Counted from the first letter of the stretch, positions 1,457 through 8,376 are shown. The stretch is DNA of 9,821 nt from a virus (IMGVR_UViG_2802429224_000016), one strand, 5' to 3'. A program made the numbers and translations. The notes: a model not told the origin generated them from the sequence alone.

Positions 1457-1533
1457 TTACCTCTAAGGTAATTAAAAACCACATAAGACACGAAATCAAT
1501 AGAGTTTAGAATGTTTTGTTACCTGATAGGTAA
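1457..1533. promoter_or_regulatory. Two operator-like palindromes TTACC-N5-GGTAA (1457-1471 TTACCTCTAAGGTAA; 1519-1533 TTACCTGATAGGTAA)
   Basis: Perfect 5-bp inverted half-sites with a 5-bp spacer, the same motif as in the oR/oL-like regions. Site 1457-1471 overlaps the RBS/5' UTR of the DUF1064-like gene. Confidence 0.5.
1471..1499 (-). promoter_or_regulatory. Candidate sigma70 promoter for the DUF1064-like/Ea22-like unit
   Basis: On the minus strand: -35 TTGATT (plus 1499-1494), 17-bp spacer, -10 TTTAAT (plus 1476-1471). The -10 lacks the conserved A at position 2, so this is weak. The 1457-1471 operator lies immediately downstream of the -10. Confidence 0.3.
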
Positions 1534-1545
1534 TTATTGAGACGT

Positions 1546-1566
1546 AAAAAAATGCGCTATCGCGCT
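1546..1566 (-). terminator. Weak intrinsic-terminator-like element after the P-like gene
   Basis: On the minus strand GCGC-GAUA-GCGC (plus 1554-1565) is followed by a 7-U run (plus A-run 1546-1552). The stem is only 4 bp. Confidence 0.2.
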
Positions 1567-1570
1567 GGTA

Positions 1571-2356
1571 TTACTTGATAAATCCTGCCGCCTTTCCCCG
1601 CCTGTATTCCTCCATCAGCCACTGCGCCGGTGTTATTCCCCCAAGGGTGGCGGCGTTAGGCATGCACCCGAAACTTCGCCCTGGTGGATGGTAAACGTCT
1701 CTCCCTGTGTCCGGAGGTGTACTCATGGGCTCTGGCTTTGCCTGTATGCTGATCACCGGATCGGGTATCTGCTGTCCGGAAGCCACCTTTTTCGCCCAAT
1801 CATCGAGCAGCCTGCGCGCGTGTTTCTCAACCTCAATCTCGCTAAGCTGGCGCTGATACATTGCACGGCGGGTATCACATACGACCCAGTACATAACCGG
1901 ATGTCGCCACGGGAATCTTTCGGGACCACCAGGATATAAACTTTTTTCCTTGCTGTACCGATGAAACTCCGCCATCACATCGTCAATGGTGACGCCAAGA
2001 ACCATCTTGCTGTCTTTACACCACTTGATGAATTGCCCTGGCGACGGCCAGAACGGAGATTCACTGGCGCGGGCGTGGCGCATACCAGCAGAAACCTGTT
2101 CACGGGTTCGGATCCCACTTTCAGCAAACGCAGCAATCCACTGCTGTTTTGCAGCGACTTCCTGCTCTGGCGTCTTCAGGTTGGTTACCACTGCCGCCGG
2201 AAACAGTTGTTTCAGCTGTTTGAAAAGGGCATCAACAAGCCTCTCTGCTGACATGTTCACCACATTGTCATTGTTGACGTACTGATGCTCATAACCTGAC
2301 ATGCGAGAAAGGGCTTCTCCGTCACGGTTTTGTATCGCGGTAAAAACGTTGTTCAC
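1571..2356 (-). CDS. Lambda P-like replication protein (replicative helicase loader)
   Basis: Conserved block WIAAFAESGIRTREQVSAGMRHARASESPFWPSPGQFIKWC resembles lambda P (recalled as RRQWVLAFRENGITTMEQVNAGMRVARRQNRPFLPSPGQFVAWC). Preferred start is GTG 2356-2354, with GGAGGA 6 nt upstream and a GTGA overlap with the O-like stop. The track's ATG 2371 is an in-frame alternative without an RBS. Confidence 0.85.
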   Translation of the reverse strand: MNNVFTAIQNRDGEALSRMSGYEHQYVNNDNVVNMSAERLVDALFKQLKQLFPAAVVTNLKTPEQEVAAKQQWIAAFAESGIRTREQVSAGMRHARASESPFWPSPGQFIKWCKDSKMVLGVTIDDVMAEFHRYSKEKSLYPGGPERFPWRHPVMYWVVCDTRRAMYQRQLSEIEVEKHARRLLDDWAKKVASGQQIPDPVISIQAKPEPMSTPPDTGRDVYHPPGRSFGCMPNAATLGGITPAQWLMEEYRRGKAAGFIK

Positions 2357-3168
2357 AAGAAATCCTCCCATGCTTCAGGGCTGTTCCAGTGCGGAACGTT
2401 GTTATCAGGTAATGTTGATTGCTTCTGTCTGCTAATCTGCAGCCGCCTTGCCAGCTTCTGCTCCCACTGTGCCTGATGGTATGCCTTACCCTCAGCCATC
2501 CAGTAAATTCTGAACTCTGCAAGTTCCTGTGCCGTTGGCAGACTGTCCAGGTAGATCCCCTGCAATGAGCTTTTCCGAAGAAAGTCATCTGATGGCTGCC
2601 ATTGTTCATGCATGACAAATTTGCCTAATTGCCCTGGCCCACGAGGAGGAACAAAGTTATTCATCACGGCGTTGTTTGCGCCGGGGTCATGAGGCACAGA
2701 ATCCCCGCTTTTTGTCCTGCTCTCCCTCTCTTGGTTAAATGACTGGTTATATGACTGGTTCTGGATCCCGTTTTTGGGATCATTCAACATCCCGTTTTTG
2801 GGATCATTCAACATCCCGTTTTTGGGTATATTCCCGTTTTCGGTAACATTACCGTTTTCGGGTTCATTACCCCCCTCCCGGTTGCCTTTAATGTTCCCGT
2901 TTTTGGTTATATTAAGAGAGAAAACCCGTACTCTTTTCGTCGCCCCCTTTCTCTCTCCGGTATCTGAAATAAGCCCCATTTTCATGAGCGATATAAGCCC
3001 GGCCTGCACGGTTTTTTTATTCAGGCAAGTGTCTTTAACGAGGCGTTCTATGCTGGGGTAGCAGAGGTTATATTCATCGGCTCTGTCAGCCATCGAGAGC
3101 AGTATGAGCTTTAATGACGAGCTACCTGGATCTGTCTCCCAGGCCCAATCTGTTGCATGTCTGCTCAT
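2353..3168 (-). CDS. Lambda O-like replication initiator (N-terminal HTH, iteron-encoded low-complexity linker, DnaT/O-like C-terminal domain)
   Basis: 271-aa ORF with ATG 3168 and GGAG RBS. The central peptide repeats (NDPKNGML x2, NG periodicity) are encoded by the iteron array. The C-terminal block QWQPSDDFLRKSSLQGIYLDSLPTAQELAEFRIYWMAEGKAYHQAQWEQKLARRLQ resembles the C-terminal domain of lambdoid O/DnaT-like proteins. Immediately upstream of the P-like gene. Confidence 0.8.
   Translation of the reverse strand: MSRHATDWAWETDPGSSSLKLILLSMADRADEYNLCYPSIERLVKDTCLNKKTVQAGLISLMKMGLISDTGERKGATKRVRVFSLNITKNGNIKGNREGGNEPENGNVTENGNIPKNGMLNDPKNGMLNDPKNGIQNQSYNQSFNQERESRTKSGDSVPHDPGANNAVMNNFVPPRGPGQLGKFVMHEQWQPSDDFLRKSSLQGIYLDSLPTAQELAEFRIYWMAEGKAYHQAQWEQKLARRLQISRQKQSTLPDNNVPHWNSPEAWEDFL
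2765..2910. repeat. Origin-of-replication iteron array inside the O-like gene
   Basis: Two identical 24-bp units ATCCCGTTTTTGGGATCATTCAAC (2765-2788, 2789-2812), a third variant (2813-2836) and degenerate copies with core CCCGTTTT(T)NGG (about 2833, 2852, 2896). The core ATCCC-N6-GGGAT has internal dyad symmetry, as lambda iterons do. Confidence 0.7.
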
Positions 3169-3183
3169 GATTAATCTCCGCTA

Positions 3184-3384
3184 TCAGCTTGAATGTTGTG
3201 GGGTGGAATTAATCATGATCTGCTTAATCTCTGCCCTGATGCGACGGTTTGATTCCATGGTGCACTCAACACAGTGTCCGTTGTAAACCCAGCGTTCACT
3301 GTCATGTCCGTGCTTACATGGTTTTCCGGTGTAGTAGCGTTTAAGTCCGCGCTTTGCGGCATCAATACGTGTAATGATTTCCAT
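3184..3384 (-). CDS. Small Cys/His-rich (putative zinc-binding) protein, 66 aa, at the cII-equivalent position
   Basis: ATG 3384 gives MEIITRIDAAKRGLKRYYTGKPCKHGHDSERWVYNGHCVECTMESNRR... with a C-x-H-x-H...H-C-x2-C arrangement. The track ORF extends to 3447, but that start is a TTG and the added N-terminus is a hydrophobic run. No family recognised. Confidence 0.45.
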   Translation of the reverse strand: MEIITRIDAAKRGLKRYYTGKPCKHGHDSERWVYNGHCVECTMESNRRIRAEIKQIMINSTPQHSS

Positions 3385-3464
3385 GGTAAGCCCTGTTATT
3401 AGTATTGGGATTACGGTTATTTTGTGCTGACACAAAAAAAAGATCAACCAGATTTGGTTTTTTA

Positions 3465-3479
3465 TTACCTTTGAGGTAC
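3465..3479. promoter_or_regulatory. Operator-like site TTACCTTTGAGGTAC (14 of 15 match to TTACC-N5-GGTAA)
   Basis: Lies between the post-cro terminator and the Cys/His-rich gene. Followed on the minus strand by a possible weak promoter (TTGATC-N17-CAAAAT). Confidence 0.35.
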
Positions 3480-3480
3480 G

Positions 3481-3513
3481 AATAGATATGAAAAGACCGC
3501 CACCCGGCGGTCT
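3481..3513 (-). terminator. Rho-independent terminator downstream of the Cro-like gene (tR1-like position)
   Basis: Minus-strand RNA AGACCGCC-GGGU-GGCGGUCU (plus 3494-3513; 8-bp GC-rich stem, 4-nt loop) followed by UUUUCAUAUCUAUU. On the plus strand it is preceded by A's rather than followed by T's, so it is unidirectional. Confidence 0.6.
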
Positions 3514-3534
3514 ACAGAGGGTTGTAGCTGGATA

Positions 3535-3765
3535 TCATGAGTAGAAGAAGTATGCCAGTTCTGCTTTTGAGCGCAGCCATTGTCTTGTTTTACAGGCTTT
3601 AAAAAGCCCATTCATCAATACTTTACCTGGCATTTTGCGCTTACCTGTTAAGTGAGTCTGGATATAGTGACTCGTCGTTCCGGCTTCCTGTGCGAAGGCT
3701 TCACGCTCATCCGGAGTAAGTGCAAGCCAGTGCTTTTTGAAATCGAAATGTCCGTTATCGCTCAT
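3535..3765 (-). CDS. Cro-like small HTH regulator (76 aa)
   Basis: Divergent from the repressor gene. The segment AGTTSHYIQTHLTGKRKMPGKVL resembles the lambda Cro recognition region (recalled as GVYQSAINKAIHAGRKIFL). Position and orientation match cro in a lambdoid immunity region. Confidence 0.65.
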   Translation of the reverse strand: MSDNGHFDFKKHWLALTPDEREAFAQEAGTTSHYIQTHLTGKRKMPGKVLMNGLFKACKTRQWLRSKAELAYFFYS

Positions 3766-3790
3766 AGCTATTGCCTGATATTTATTTCAG

Positions 3791-3819
3791 ATAATAAATA
3801 TTCACCCATAAGGTAACAA
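3791..3819 (-). promoter_or_regulatory. pR-like promoter driving the Cro-like gene
   Basis: On the minus strand: -35 TTGTTA (plus 3819-3814), 17-bp spacer, -10 TATTAT (plus 3796-3791). Operator site 3802-3816 sits inside the spacer/-35. Confidence 0.45.
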
Positions 3820-3864
3820 AAATCAAGGATAGTTACCTATGAGGTGCATTTACCTGTTGGGTAA
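3802..3864. promoter_or_regulatory. oR-like tripartite operator (3802-3816 TCACCCATAAGGTAA; 3833-3847 TTACCTATGAGGTGC; 3850-3864 TTACCTGTTGGGTAA)
   Basis: Three 15-bp palindromic sites in the divergent intergenic region between the Cro-like and repressor genes, centre spacings 31 and 17 bp. One perfect, two with 1-2 mismatches. Confidence 0.55.
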
Positions 3865-3919
3865 TATTGCTTTAAATTGAATCATCTACTGATTCATATA
3901 TGAGGCGATTTTCCAGAAA

Positions 3920-4504
3920 ATGAAAAGTATCCAGGACGTCCGCAGGCAAAATCTCAACGACTTGATCGACCGTGAATTCAATGGTGTTCAGACGCGGATG
4001 GCAGAAAAACTTGGAACTCAGGCAAATCTGGTAAACCGCTGGGCTCTTGGCAAGAAGGTTATCGGCGACCAGGTTGCGCGAAAAATTGAAGCTGCCGCCA
4101 ATAAACCCCGTAACTGGCTTGATATCGATCGCTCGCTTTCTCAGGAAGGTTTTCAGCCTGTCGGCCCGAGTGATATAGGTCAGCTGGCTGCTCACAACCT
4201 GGAACGCTGGATGAGCGAAAGCCGCGACCTTTCAACGCAGGGAAAACTACACCGCGCATCCGGCGTCGCCCAGGTGACAATCAGCCGCCTGTTAAACAAT
4301 GAGGTCAGCGTTTCCATTTCCACCCTGGAGAATGTTGCATCTGCATTCGGGCGTCATGGCTATGAATTACTGATTCACCCGCACGACCCTGCGACTATCA
4401 ACTATGACCGCTCGCGCTACGCATTGTTACCCGAAACCGAGAAAGCAAAGATCGAAAGTTACATTGAATTTGTCATCAACCAGAACGAAAAAAACAAACA
4501 ATAA
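3920..4504 (+). CDS. Putative prophage repressor with tandem HTH_XRE-like domains, no S24/LexA-type peptidase domain (194 aa)
   Basis: First HTH around QTRMAEKLGTQANLVNRWALGKKVIGDQVARKIEAA, second around LHRASGVAQVTISRLLNNEVSVSISTLENVASAFG. No Ser/Lys autocleavage motif seen in the C-terminus. cI-equivalent position: divergent from cro, flanked by both operator clusters. No SD upstream of ATG 3920, so a leaderless transcript is possible. Confidence 0.7.
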   Translation: MKSIQDVRRQNLNDLIDREFNGVQTRMAEKLGTQANLVNRWALGKKVIGDQVARKIEAAANKPRNWLDIDRSLSQEGFQPVGPSDIGQLAAHNLERWMSESRDLSTQGKLHRASGVAQVTISRLLNNEVSVSISTLENVASAFGRHGYELLIHPHDPATINYDRSRYALLPETEKAKIESYIEFVINQNEKNKQ

Positions 4505-4524
4505 AACTATAGTTTTCAGCAAGT

Positions 4525-4550
4525 AAGCCGCCATGAGGCGGCTTTTTTAT
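4525..4550 (+). terminator. Rho-independent terminator after the repressor gene
   Basis: AAGCCGCC-ATGA-GGCGGCTT (4525-4544) followed by TTTTTTATT. Confidence 0.7.
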
Positions 4551-4561
4551 TGCCTGTTAGA

Positions 4562-4638
4562 TTACCTGTTGGGTAATTTTTTTAACTCATATCTATTGAC
4601 ATCAAACCAGATACGCATAATTATTACCTAAACGGTAA
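4562..4638. promoter_or_regulatory. oL-like operator pair (4562-4576 TTACCTGTTGGGTAA; 4624-4638 TTACCTAAACGGTAA)
   Basis: Two perfect palindromes flanking a candidate promoter. The 16-mer TTACCTGTTGGGTAAT is identical to the site at 3850-3865. Confidence 0.55.
4596..4624 (+). promoter_or_regulatory. pL-like promoter for the rightward early operon
   Basis: Perfect -35 TTGACA (4596-4601). The -10 is either AATTAT at 17-bp spacing (4619-4624) or CATAAT at 14-bp spacing (4616-4621). The -10 region abuts or overlaps operator 4624-4638. Confidence 0.35.
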
Positions 4639-4657
4639 CAGACCGAGGTAACAAGTT

Positions 4658-4810
4658 ATGCAGTGGAAAATCATCAACGGTTGGTACTGCGTTACTGCAT
4701 GCGGATTCATGAGCTGGAAGTTCCGCACCTTACAGGAAGGCATCAAGTGGGCTTTCGTCAGCAAAGAAGCTCGCGATGTGGCCAACGATAACGAGATATG
4801 GGAGGGCTGA
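4658..4810 (+). CDS. Small hypothetical protein (50 aa, Trp-rich), first gene of the rightward operon
   Basis: ATG 4658 with GAGGT 8 nt upstream: MQWKIINGWYCVTACGFMSWKFRTLQEGIKWAFVSKEARDVANDNEIWEG, stop TGA 4808-4810. Below the length cutoff of the supplied ORF track. No family recognised. Confidence 0.4.
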   Translation: MQWKIINGWYCVTACGFMSWKFRTLQEGIKWAFVSKEARDVANDNEIWEG

Positions 4811-7433: not shown

Positions 7434-7733
7434 GTGAGAAAGTTAAGCCGACTTGAAAAATATCACATGAATAAGGTTTCAATGCGCAGTCCGTCAAAGA
7501 TTGTCGCCGTTACTCCTGCGGCGATAGAGATCGAAAAACGCGCGATTGAACGAGAGAAAAAAGGGCAGTTCCGCATTGCCGCCCACCTTTGGCTTCAGTG
7601 TATGGATGTTGCTTCTGGTGATGTTGAGCGTGCAAGGATCGCGGTTCGCAGGGACCAATGTATCACAAAAGGTAACGGCCTTCGCCGTGGCGACTATAGC
7701 GGCATAGGATGTTGCGGGGTGGTTTATGACTAA
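7434..7733 (+). CDS. Hypothetical small protein (99 aa)
   Basis: Coordinates taken from the supplied ORF track; my own reading of the first two codons from the sequence text did not reproduce the track's start, so the start is uncertain (ATG 7467 is an in-frame alternative). Stop TAA 7731-7733 overlaps the methyltransferase start (ATGACTAA). Confidence 0.45.
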   Translation: MRKLSRLEKYHMNKVSMRSPSKIVAVTPAAIEIEKRAIEREKKGQFRIAAHLWLQCMDVASGDVERARIAVRRDQCITKGNGLRRGDYSGIGCCGVVYD

Positions 7734-8376
7734 GAAATACACACTAATCTATGCAGATCCACCCTGGGTATACCGGGACAAAGCCGCAGATGGTAATCGC
7801 GGTGCCGGTTTTAAATATCCAGTTATGAGTGTGCTGGATATCTGCCGCCTTCCTGTGTGGGATTTGGCCGCTGAAAACTGTCTGTTGGCCATGTGGTGGG
7901 TGCCAACACAACCACTCGAAGCACTAAAAGTTGTTGAAGCCTGGGGATTTCGTCTTATGACCATGAAGGGCTTCACGTGGATAAAATGTGGTAGTCGACA
8001 ACCAGATAAACTGGTTATGGGTATGGGACACATGACCCGCGCCAATAGTGAAGATTGCCTGTTTGCGGTAAAGGGAAAACTACCTCCGCGCATTAATGCA
8101 GGGATCGTTCAGTCATTTACCGCACCGCGGCTTGAGCACTCAAGAAAACCAGATGTCGTTCGTGAAAAACTTGTGCAATTGTTAGGCGATGTTTCTCGCA
8201 TTGAACTGTTCGCCCGCCAGTCGTCTCATGACTTCGATGTTTGGGGTAATCAGTGCGAAAACTCGGCAGTGCAACTACACCCTGGATACGCGTTGGATAT
8301 TGGCGGATTAACAAATGCATTCAGCAATTCTCCGCTGTCACCAACAGACAACCAGGGGCGGGAGCGTGCTGCATGA
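7726..8376 (+). CDS. MT-A70-family N6-adenine DNA methyltransferase (DPPW motif), 216 aa
   Basis: N-terminal YTLIYADPPWVY contains the DPPW catalytic motif of MT-A70-type amino-methyltransferases. No adjacent restriction endonuclease gene in the window. Confidence 0.8.
   Translation: MTKKYTLIYADPPWVYRDKAADGNRGAGFKYPVMSVLDICRLPVWDLAAENCLLAMWWVPTQPLEALKVVEAWGFRLMTMKGFTWIKCGSRQPDKLVMGMGHMTRANSEDCLFAVKGKLPPRINAGIVQSFTAPRLEHSRKPDVVREKLVQLLGDVSRIELFARQSSHDFDVWGNQCENSAVQLHPGYALDIGGLTNAFSNSPLSPTDNQGRERAA

Follow-up and report, generated by a model that had tools for sequence, protein, structure and literature searches.

The lambda terminator tR1 depends on Rho, and N overcomes it through nutR. It follows cro immediately and precedes the replication genes, in the order cro-tR1-cII-O-P, and a terminator has the same placement in the DNA analyzed here, a stretch of 9,821 nucleotides from a virus (IMGVR_UViG_2802429224_000016) that we refer to as the window. 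In both, the repressor and cro genes diverge around a three-site operator region, and an O-like gene with internal iterons is followed by a gene of the P family. Unlike lambda, the window has a hairpin with a short U-tract after cro, shows no N or nut, and carries a conserved candidate promoter between the terminator and the next gene.

Closer relatives provide further points of reference. Salmonella phage SPC32H has a Rep/Ant immunity system, and its repressor (PDB 5d50) is homologous to the window Rep (E 4e-42, residues 1–190); as summarized in PMC9638917, SPC32H Rep is a repressor with a non-canonical binding mode. In the epsilon15 GenBank record (AY150271), palindromes with the same TTACC/GGTAA half-sites as the window operators are annotated as repressor-binding sites, while the site in the gap between cro and gp40 is not annotated. 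The phiV10 record (DQ126339) places a "putative rho-independent terminator" at 33078–33100, between p41 and p42; this is the same element, in the same position, as the hairpin that follows cro in the window, and the region around it is 97% identical.

The window represents the early region of a prophage of the phiV10/epsilon15-type temperate podoviruses (genus Uetakevirus). Positions 3100–4700 are 97–98% identical to phages phiv142-3, PAS61 and phiV10 and up to 99% identical to E. coli prophages, with matches in 562 of 5,426 complete E. coli genomes; the immunity region is present in about 10% of these genomes. The rep gene (3920–4504, plus strand) encodes a protein with two helix-turn-helix domains (Pfam HTH_3; PDB 5d50). 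To its right, on the same strand, are two small ORFs and genes for an exonuclease, RecT, an AlpA-like protein, a PerC-like protein (7434–7733, a PerC-family activator inside the PL operon) and an adenine methylase (7726–8376), and the integrase gene occupies the right end of the window on the minus strand. The cro-like gene (3535–3765, minus strand; 76 amino acids) is the first gene read from the PR-like promoter (TTGTTA, 17 nt, TATTAT). This promoter lies in the OR region (3802–3864), between rep and cro, together with operators at 3802–3816 and 3850–3864 and a two-mismatch site at 3833–3847. The cro-like gene corresponds to phiV10 p41 and epsilon15 gp39, and its product matches phrog_35, "transcriptional repressor", in PHROGs (E 5.6e-13), with no match in Pfam and no sequence match in PDB.

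The replication operon, also on the minus strand, opens with a Cys/His-rich ORF of 66 amino acids (3184–3384; phrog_1081, E 2e-42) equivalent to phiV10 p42 and epsilon15 gp40, and continues with a DnaT/O-like gene (2353–3168) and a lambda-P-family gene (1571–2371); a DUF1064 gene follows at 1109–1453 on the same strand. The Cys/His-rich protein has weak similarity to the zinc-binding N-terminus of endonuclease VII, and at least three diverged versions occupy its position in relatives. An 87-amino-acid ORF starting from TTG 3447 was rejected as an over-extension of this gene because relatives carry upstream indels whose lengths are not divisible by three, and the true start is ATG 3384. Within the DnaT/O-like gene, positions 2760–2900 contain direct repeats of CCCGTTTTTGGGATCATTCAACAT along with shorter CCGTTTTCGG-type units. 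These are probably origin iterons, as in lambda O, and they also give rise to false terminator calls on the plus strand.

Read in the cro sense, the 150-bp gap between the cro-like and Cys/His-rich genes consists of the hairpin, TTTCATATCTATTC, the operator-like site GTACCTCAAAGGTAA, 17 nt, TTGATC, another 17 nt opening with T8, CAAAAT, AACC, and 28 nt with a weak ribosome-binding site leading to ATG 3384. Homologous gaps were gathered by searching with the cro-like protein, not with a DNA motif, and were drawn from three sets of 80 IMG/VR loci, 8 genomes from other enterobacterial genera and 7 named phages. The large set comprises 234 loci with 168 unique gap sequences, 165 of which were analyzed in detail. 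The diverse alignment contains 16 sequences whose cro proteins are 57–100% identical to that of the window. The prophages sampled come from Escherichia, Salmonella, Enterobacter, Klebsiella, Citrobacter, Kluyvera, Buttiauxella, Scandinavium, Pseudocitrobacter and Erwinia.

The hairpin after cro, which we designate t_cro (3484–3513, minus strand), combines a stem-loop at 3513→3494, AGACCGCC-GGGT-GGCGGTCT, with the short, interrupted U-tract TTTCATATCT at 3493→3484. It starts 21 nt past the cro stop codon and its stem has 8 pairs, 6 of them G-C. A terminator pattern scan flags the element, and its folding energy of −15 kcal/mol (z = −3.2) was equaled by 1 of 200 shuffles. A GC-stem terminator acting on minus-strand transcripts had been placed at 3494–3513 in a preliminary description made from the window sequence alone, and the scan, the folding and the retention of the stem in relatives all bear this out. 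It is not new, as that description had taken it to be: t_cro is a moderately strong terminator hairpin that the phiV10 record already annotates. The U-tract itself is short, reading UUUU (UUU if the closing A-U pair forms) and then C. Its tail, UUU(U)CAUAUCU, has 5 U in 8, which passes the pattern-scan rule, with just 3–4 consecutive, and it is weaker than that of the rep terminator (4525–4544), which has six U in a row.

The hairpin was seen in all 165 unique gaps analyzed, with energies of −9.8 to −15.4 kcal/mol, and is recognizable by eye in the three remaining gaps, which are exceptions to the layout described below. Its loops occur in more than 25 variants of 3–8 nt. Among the 16 diverse relatives, at least 9 have G·U pairs in the stem that are valid only on the cro-sense strand, and in Scandinavium, with one G-C to A-U double change, the stem is likewise kept on that strand only. 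Pairing kept solely on the cro-sense strand indicates that the hairpin acts as RNA in PR transcripts. The U-tract is confined to the phiV10, Tyrion, BUCT554, Pseudocitrobacter, Buttiauxella and Scandinavium types; the epsilon15, SPN1S, Citrobacter and Klebsiella types have none, and carry C-rich tails (UCCUUCCU or UCCUGCCU). The hairpin in these four types is unlikely to terminate efficiently as an intrinsic element, and the downstream genes could be transcribed chiefly by read-through from PR. Because only some types have a U-tract, efficient intrinsic termination is not the conserved property; partial termination, protection of the 3′ end of the cro message and Rho-dependent release are possible roles. 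For the window itself, the stem and its tail make t_cro a likely partial intrinsic terminator of PR transcripts.

The window loop deserves separate mention. GGGT (3502–3505, minus strand) is the reverse complement of ACCC, one of two common loops, the other being ATCC. It occurs in none of the 233 other loci and is absent from all 239 complete E. coli genomes that match the 59-nt segment, which differ from the window at four positions (93.2% identity). The change resembles a flip between perfect inverted repeats, of the kind left by template switching or by an assembly artefact.

A second hairpin, made up of A8, a stem and a T-run at 3434–3463, had been proposed as a terminator able to work in either direction. 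The letters exist, but the fold is no better than that of shuffled sequence on either strand (minus, −4.1 kcal/mol, z = +0.11; plus, −5.8 kcal/mol, z = −1.3), and the pairing is not conserved. Only two G-C pairs are present in the stem, which is lost in the Klebsiella, Tyrion and BUCT554 types (ATCC...GGTT), and the T-run is substituted in relatives with an alternative replication module. We reject this element as a terminator; positions 3434–3463 are the upstream part of a promoter-like module, P2, and not a hairpin.

P2 has a putative −35 hexamer, TTGATC (3442–3447), and a putative −10 hexamer, CAAAAT (3419–3424), separated on the minus strand by a 17-nt spacer (3425–3441) that opens with T8, the A8 of the plus strand. 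The −35 contains a GATC site and the −10 is without its first T. Directly upstream of the −35 is a conserved CC-N6-GG element (3448–3457, minus strand), which takes the forms CCAAATCTGG, CCATATACGG, CCAAATACGG, CCGAATATGG and CCATATATGG in different lineages, without keeping the hairpin pairing; a search for repeated motifs in the window gave no other copy. The TTGATC-N17-CAAAAT candidate was already pointed out in the preliminary description and it does exist, matching consensus at 8 of 12 positions, under the threshold of the scan tool. With a rough sigma-70 weight matrix, of use as a ranking aid only, P2 scores 9.2 bits compared with 12.4–12.6 for PR, PL and P3, and 27% of shuffled gaps equal it. 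In one sequence alone, P2 is not statistically significant.

The comparative data bear on P2 more directly. TTGAT(C/A) paired with CAAAAT (AAAAAT in Tyrion) is the top sense-strand promoter candidate of the weight-matrix scan in 14 of 16 relatives. In the diverse alignment (n = 16), the sole invariant runs of five or more columns are GGTAA (3469–3465), GGTTGAT (3449–3443) and AAAAT (3423–3419), and an invariant run of at least seven columns arose in 0.03% of column permutations (P = 0.0003). Mean column identity is 0.99 across GGTTGATC and 0.98 across the −10, compared with 0.54–0.78 in the rest of the gap. The layout GGTAA-N15-19-TTGAnn-N14-19-nAAAAT fits 165 of the 168 unique gaps found among the 234 loci, and 161 of those 165 have a spacer of 16 or 17 nt; the three exceptions keep GGTTGATC and have CAGATT or GAATAT as the −10. 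Of 165 unique gaps, 155 have TTGATC as the −35 in place of TTGACA, and the GATC adenine-methylation site is thus preserved. Among close relatives (L003–L082) the T-run in the spacer has 5 to 9 residues, so that the distance between −35 and −10 ranges from 15 to 18 nt.

The key positions for sigma-70 are the TTG of the −35 and A−11 and T−7 of the −10. These bases and the spacing between them are what the diverged relatives keep, and this is the pattern predicted by a functional sigma-70 promoter. P2 thus appears weak yet highly conserved, and from this pattern we infer that transcription initiates there. It is not annotated in the records examined, and the ZX5 paper gives predicted promoters only, with no mapping in the gap between cro and the replication genes. 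Other readings of the conserved block were considered and set aside: a plus-strand promoter beside the operator, antisense to cro, has no −35 (AAAAAG stands at the appropriate distance) and leaves the invariance of AAAAT unexplained, and matches to IHF sites and DnaA boxes, judged by eye, are partial and not conserved.

P2 also straddles a boundary between exchangeable modules. About 20 phiV10-like relatives, including TL-2011b and ZX5, have a different replication module; homology to the window ends right after TTGATC, and CAAAAT is found again 16 nt downstream. Position 3441/3442 is a mosaic junction: rightward from 3442, the window is matched almost exactly by TL-2011b, ZX5, HEMP4 and about 20 relatives from IMG/VR, which have another small gene and replication module on the left. 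The invariant GGTTGATC block at this junction may be a recombination linker between the immunity and replication modules.

To locate repressor sites we used the motif TTACC-N5-GGTAA, allowing at most one mismatch. The window contains 7 matches compared with 0.23 expected, a number reached by none of 200 shuffles. One of these is the site at 3465–3479 (TTACCTTTGAGGTAC; GTACC-TCAAA-GGTAA on the minus strand), with a single mismatch, and the operator-like site of 14 matches in 15 reported earlier is therefore a member of a strongly enriched set. The other six are at 3802 and 3850 (between rep and cro), 4562 and 4624 (PL), and 1457 and 1519 (between the P-like and DUF1064 genes). The promoter-proximal half of the gap site, GGTAA, is invariant in the 16 diverse relatives. 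Only one of 165 unique gaps has TTACC as the distal half; the other 164 depart from consensus, with variants that include ACACC, GTACC, GCACC, ATACC and AGTCC. On the other side of the promoter, a degenerate half-site, TAACC (3415–3419, minus strand), overlaps the last −10 base, as at PL and P3; across the 165 unique gaps this proximal half-site is TTACC in 82, TAACC in 29 and TGACC in 17, and its partner half has been lost. The TTACC/GGTAA half-sites are common to all relatives found, which leaves no variation in repressor specificity to compare with the gap site. The 3802–3816 operator, in the PR spacer, always has one non-consensus half in relatives (TCACC/GGTGA). At some promoters, then, sub-optimal half-sites look like a conserved part of the design.

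Two other early promoters in the window offer a direct comparison. The PL module (4562–4638, plus strand) consists of an operator, 19 nt, TTGACA, 17 nt, and AATTAT running into a TACC operator. The P3 module (1457–1565, minus strand), which sits after the P-like gene, consists of a terminator followed by an operator, 19 nt, TTGATT, 17 nt, and TTTAAT running into a TACC operator, with operators and promoter at 1533–1457. The P3 terminator is annotated in phiV10, and the epsilon15 record marks the upstream P3 operator as a repressor site. Both PL and P3 are placed after a terminator, and in both the operator centers are 62 bp apart. This distance is exact in most of 14 diverse relatives, whatever separates the modules, and the operators themselves are perfect in most of the diverse relatives compared, which suggests that one repressor oligomer contacts both members of each pair (1457–1533 and 4562–4638). 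By its order of elements, the gap looks like a third copy of this unit, a terminator and then an operator-flanked promoter, with degraded operators. It differs in that the gap site is sub-consensus in nearly all relatives and is without the perfect partner found 62 bp away at PL and P3, a half-site standing in its place, and in that the inner half-sites are 43–45 nt apart at P2 vs 47 nt at PL and P3, a distance shorter by 2–4 bp. Within the PL operator pair there is also a mirror-image promoter-like site on the minus strand (4571–4606; TTGATG, 18 nt, AAAAAT, then the 4562–4576 operator). Its −35 overlaps that of PL (TTGACATCAA), and transcription from it would run into the rep terminator and antisense to rep; about 60 relatives have this site, which has a low score of 7.6 bits.

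These comparisons divide an earlier suggestion, that the gap holds a separate operator-controlled promoter, into two parts. The promoter is favored by the hexamers, which are the most conserved bases of the gap, and by the PL/P3-like layout; control by Rep is the uncertain part. The operator adjoins P2 on the upstream side of the −35, not where a repressor would classically occlude a promoter, and because of this location, the degenerate distal half, the half-site partner and the shorter spacing, Rep control of P2 is uncertain, though plausible, and would be weaker than at the other promoters. An unrepressed replication promoter would be harmful in a prophage.

The preliminary description had further held that expression of the replication genes needs either antitermination, by a factor or RNA element hidden from view, or a promoter within the gap. 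Searches with Pfam and PHROGs detected no N, Q or other family of antiterminators in the window, and neither the first PL product (50 amino acids) nor the cro-like protein matches an Arg-rich N-like family; the statement that no N-like protein is encoded holds as far as these two collections can see. The search for N/Q-like functions beyond the window gave the same answer, with no antiterminator detected by Pfam or PHROGs in phiV10 rightward genes p46 to p55 and none mentioned among product names in the rest of the phiV10 annotation. The gene phiV10 p55 (3767–4105 of locus L098), the last before the terminase genes, matches the phrog_536 transcriptional regulators (E 1.5e-54) and is a candidate late-gene regulator in a phage group without a recognizable Q.

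At the RNA level, a scan of the whole window (E ≤ 1) against Rfam, which may include no put model, returned only a chance match to snoR12 overlying the two P3 operators. We found no boxA/boxB-like element with a conserved loop downstream of both early promoters, the loop after cro being hypervariable, and no two-stem RNA of the HK022 put type (~70 nt) downstream of PL and PR; after cro there is just a single hairpin. Neither a second copy of that hairpin nor any nut/put-like element was found downstream of PL. PL and the post-PR region share nothing more than the operators, one 11-mer (TCATATCTATT) and one 25-mer around the −35 and operator. The PL leader extends ~25 nt before the first ORF and shares no hairpin with the post-cro region, and it has no room for a put-type RNA. 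With no N, Q, nut or put found and with P2 lying beyond the terminator, the supposed need for antitermination falls away, since a promoter in that position would make it unnecessary.

On balance, we consider it probable, with some reserve, that the 150-bp gap divides two early transcription units under separate control, the second served by P2 together with some read-through. PR transcripts would read cro and meet the hairpin at 3513→3494, where some, perhaps most, would end. About 45 bp past the hairpin, P2 (TTGATC at 3447–3442, 17 nt, CAAAAT at 3424–3419) would act as a weak sigma-70-type promoter with a predicted start near 3412, driving the Cys/His-rich gene and the DnaT/O-like and P-like replication genes. 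It is flanked by the sub-consensus operator at 3479–3465, centered near −60, and by a remnant half-site over the −10. Rep would bind at 3465–3479, and termination at the hairpin would be partial. In the prophage, Rep would most likely keep P2 silent or at a low level; once Rep is inactivated, all four promoters (PR, P2, P3 and PL) would become active, and read-through of the leaky terminator would probably add to replication-gene expression. The early region would then comprise three separately repressed units, each insulated by a terminator, with no call for antitermination.

The same observations can be read in other ways. If the replication genes were expressed solely from PR, by transcripts passing the leaky hairpin, GGTAA...GGTTGATC...AAAAT would be no promoter, and the conserved block could be a protein-binding or recombination-linker sequence. 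The U-tract, short in the window and absent from the epsilon15 and Klebsiella types, is in keeping with such a scheme, as are the failure of P2 to rise above chance in a single sequence and the coincidence of the exchangeable-module junction with the conserved block. We nevertheless think it unlikely, while giving it appreciable weight: the invariant bases are the key ones for sigma-70, spaced at 16–17 nt in 161 of 165 unique gaps, the −10 is kept beyond the recombination junction, a ribosome-binding site and start codon follow about 28 nt on, and PL and P3 share the order of elements. Far less probable, to the point where we give it very little credence, is processive antitermination, in which an N/nut-like or put-like factor would let PR transcripts pass the terminator. 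A terminator between cro and the replication genes recalls lambda tR1, and several small early proteins are without known function. Against this stand the empty Rfam result and the absence of antiterminator families from the window and the scanned phiV10 genes; the post-PR region and the ~25-nt PL leader have only operators and the 11-mer in common; and a recognition loop like that of boxB would not vary among more than 25 forms of 3–8 nt.

A further reading accepts P2 as a promoter and makes it activator-dependent and delayed-early, with the cro-like protein, the PerC-like protein (7434–7733) or Rep bound near −60 acting through GGTAA or CC-N6-GG, such that an activation cascade replaces antitermination. 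It would account for hexamers that are conserved yet sub-optimal, for an invariant GGTAA centered near −60 with the conserved CC-N6-GG abutting the −35, and for a distal operator half that is systematically non-consensus where the PL and P3 operators are perfect; a PerC-family activator gene is at hand in the PL operon. We regard this as doubtful, however, as CC-N6-GG is not repeated elsewhere in the window and GGTAA is a Rep operator half-site, Rep being a repressor in SPC32H according to the summary in PMC9638917. A broader version, which we put forward as an improbable conjecture, is that P2 is deliberately weak and specially regulated, with looping by Rep, adenine methylation state or an activator setting replication-gene expression. 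A single Rep tetramer could span the invariant half-sites, GGTAA near −60 and TTACC at the −10, which would fit the non-canonical mode outlined for SPC32H in PMC9638917; the GATC within the near-invariant TTGATC and the T-run of 5 to 9 may also bear on the question. If true, such regulation would be a cascade doing the job that N antitermination does in lambda.

Returning to the boundary between two units that we favor, much of what it is built from is already known, the terminator from phiV10 and the operator motif from epsilon15, and the arrangement is ordinary. The early region has at least four promoters with repressor sites, and terminators after rep, cro and the replication genes. The sole mildly unusual point is that almost all relatives retain a sub-optimal operator beside the replication promoter. 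These findings are of use for the annotation of such prophages and for the engineering of phiV10/epsilon15-type phages, and leave the general picture unchanged. What the locus shows is a layout for early transcription without lambda-style antitermination in a common group of enterobacterial prophages.
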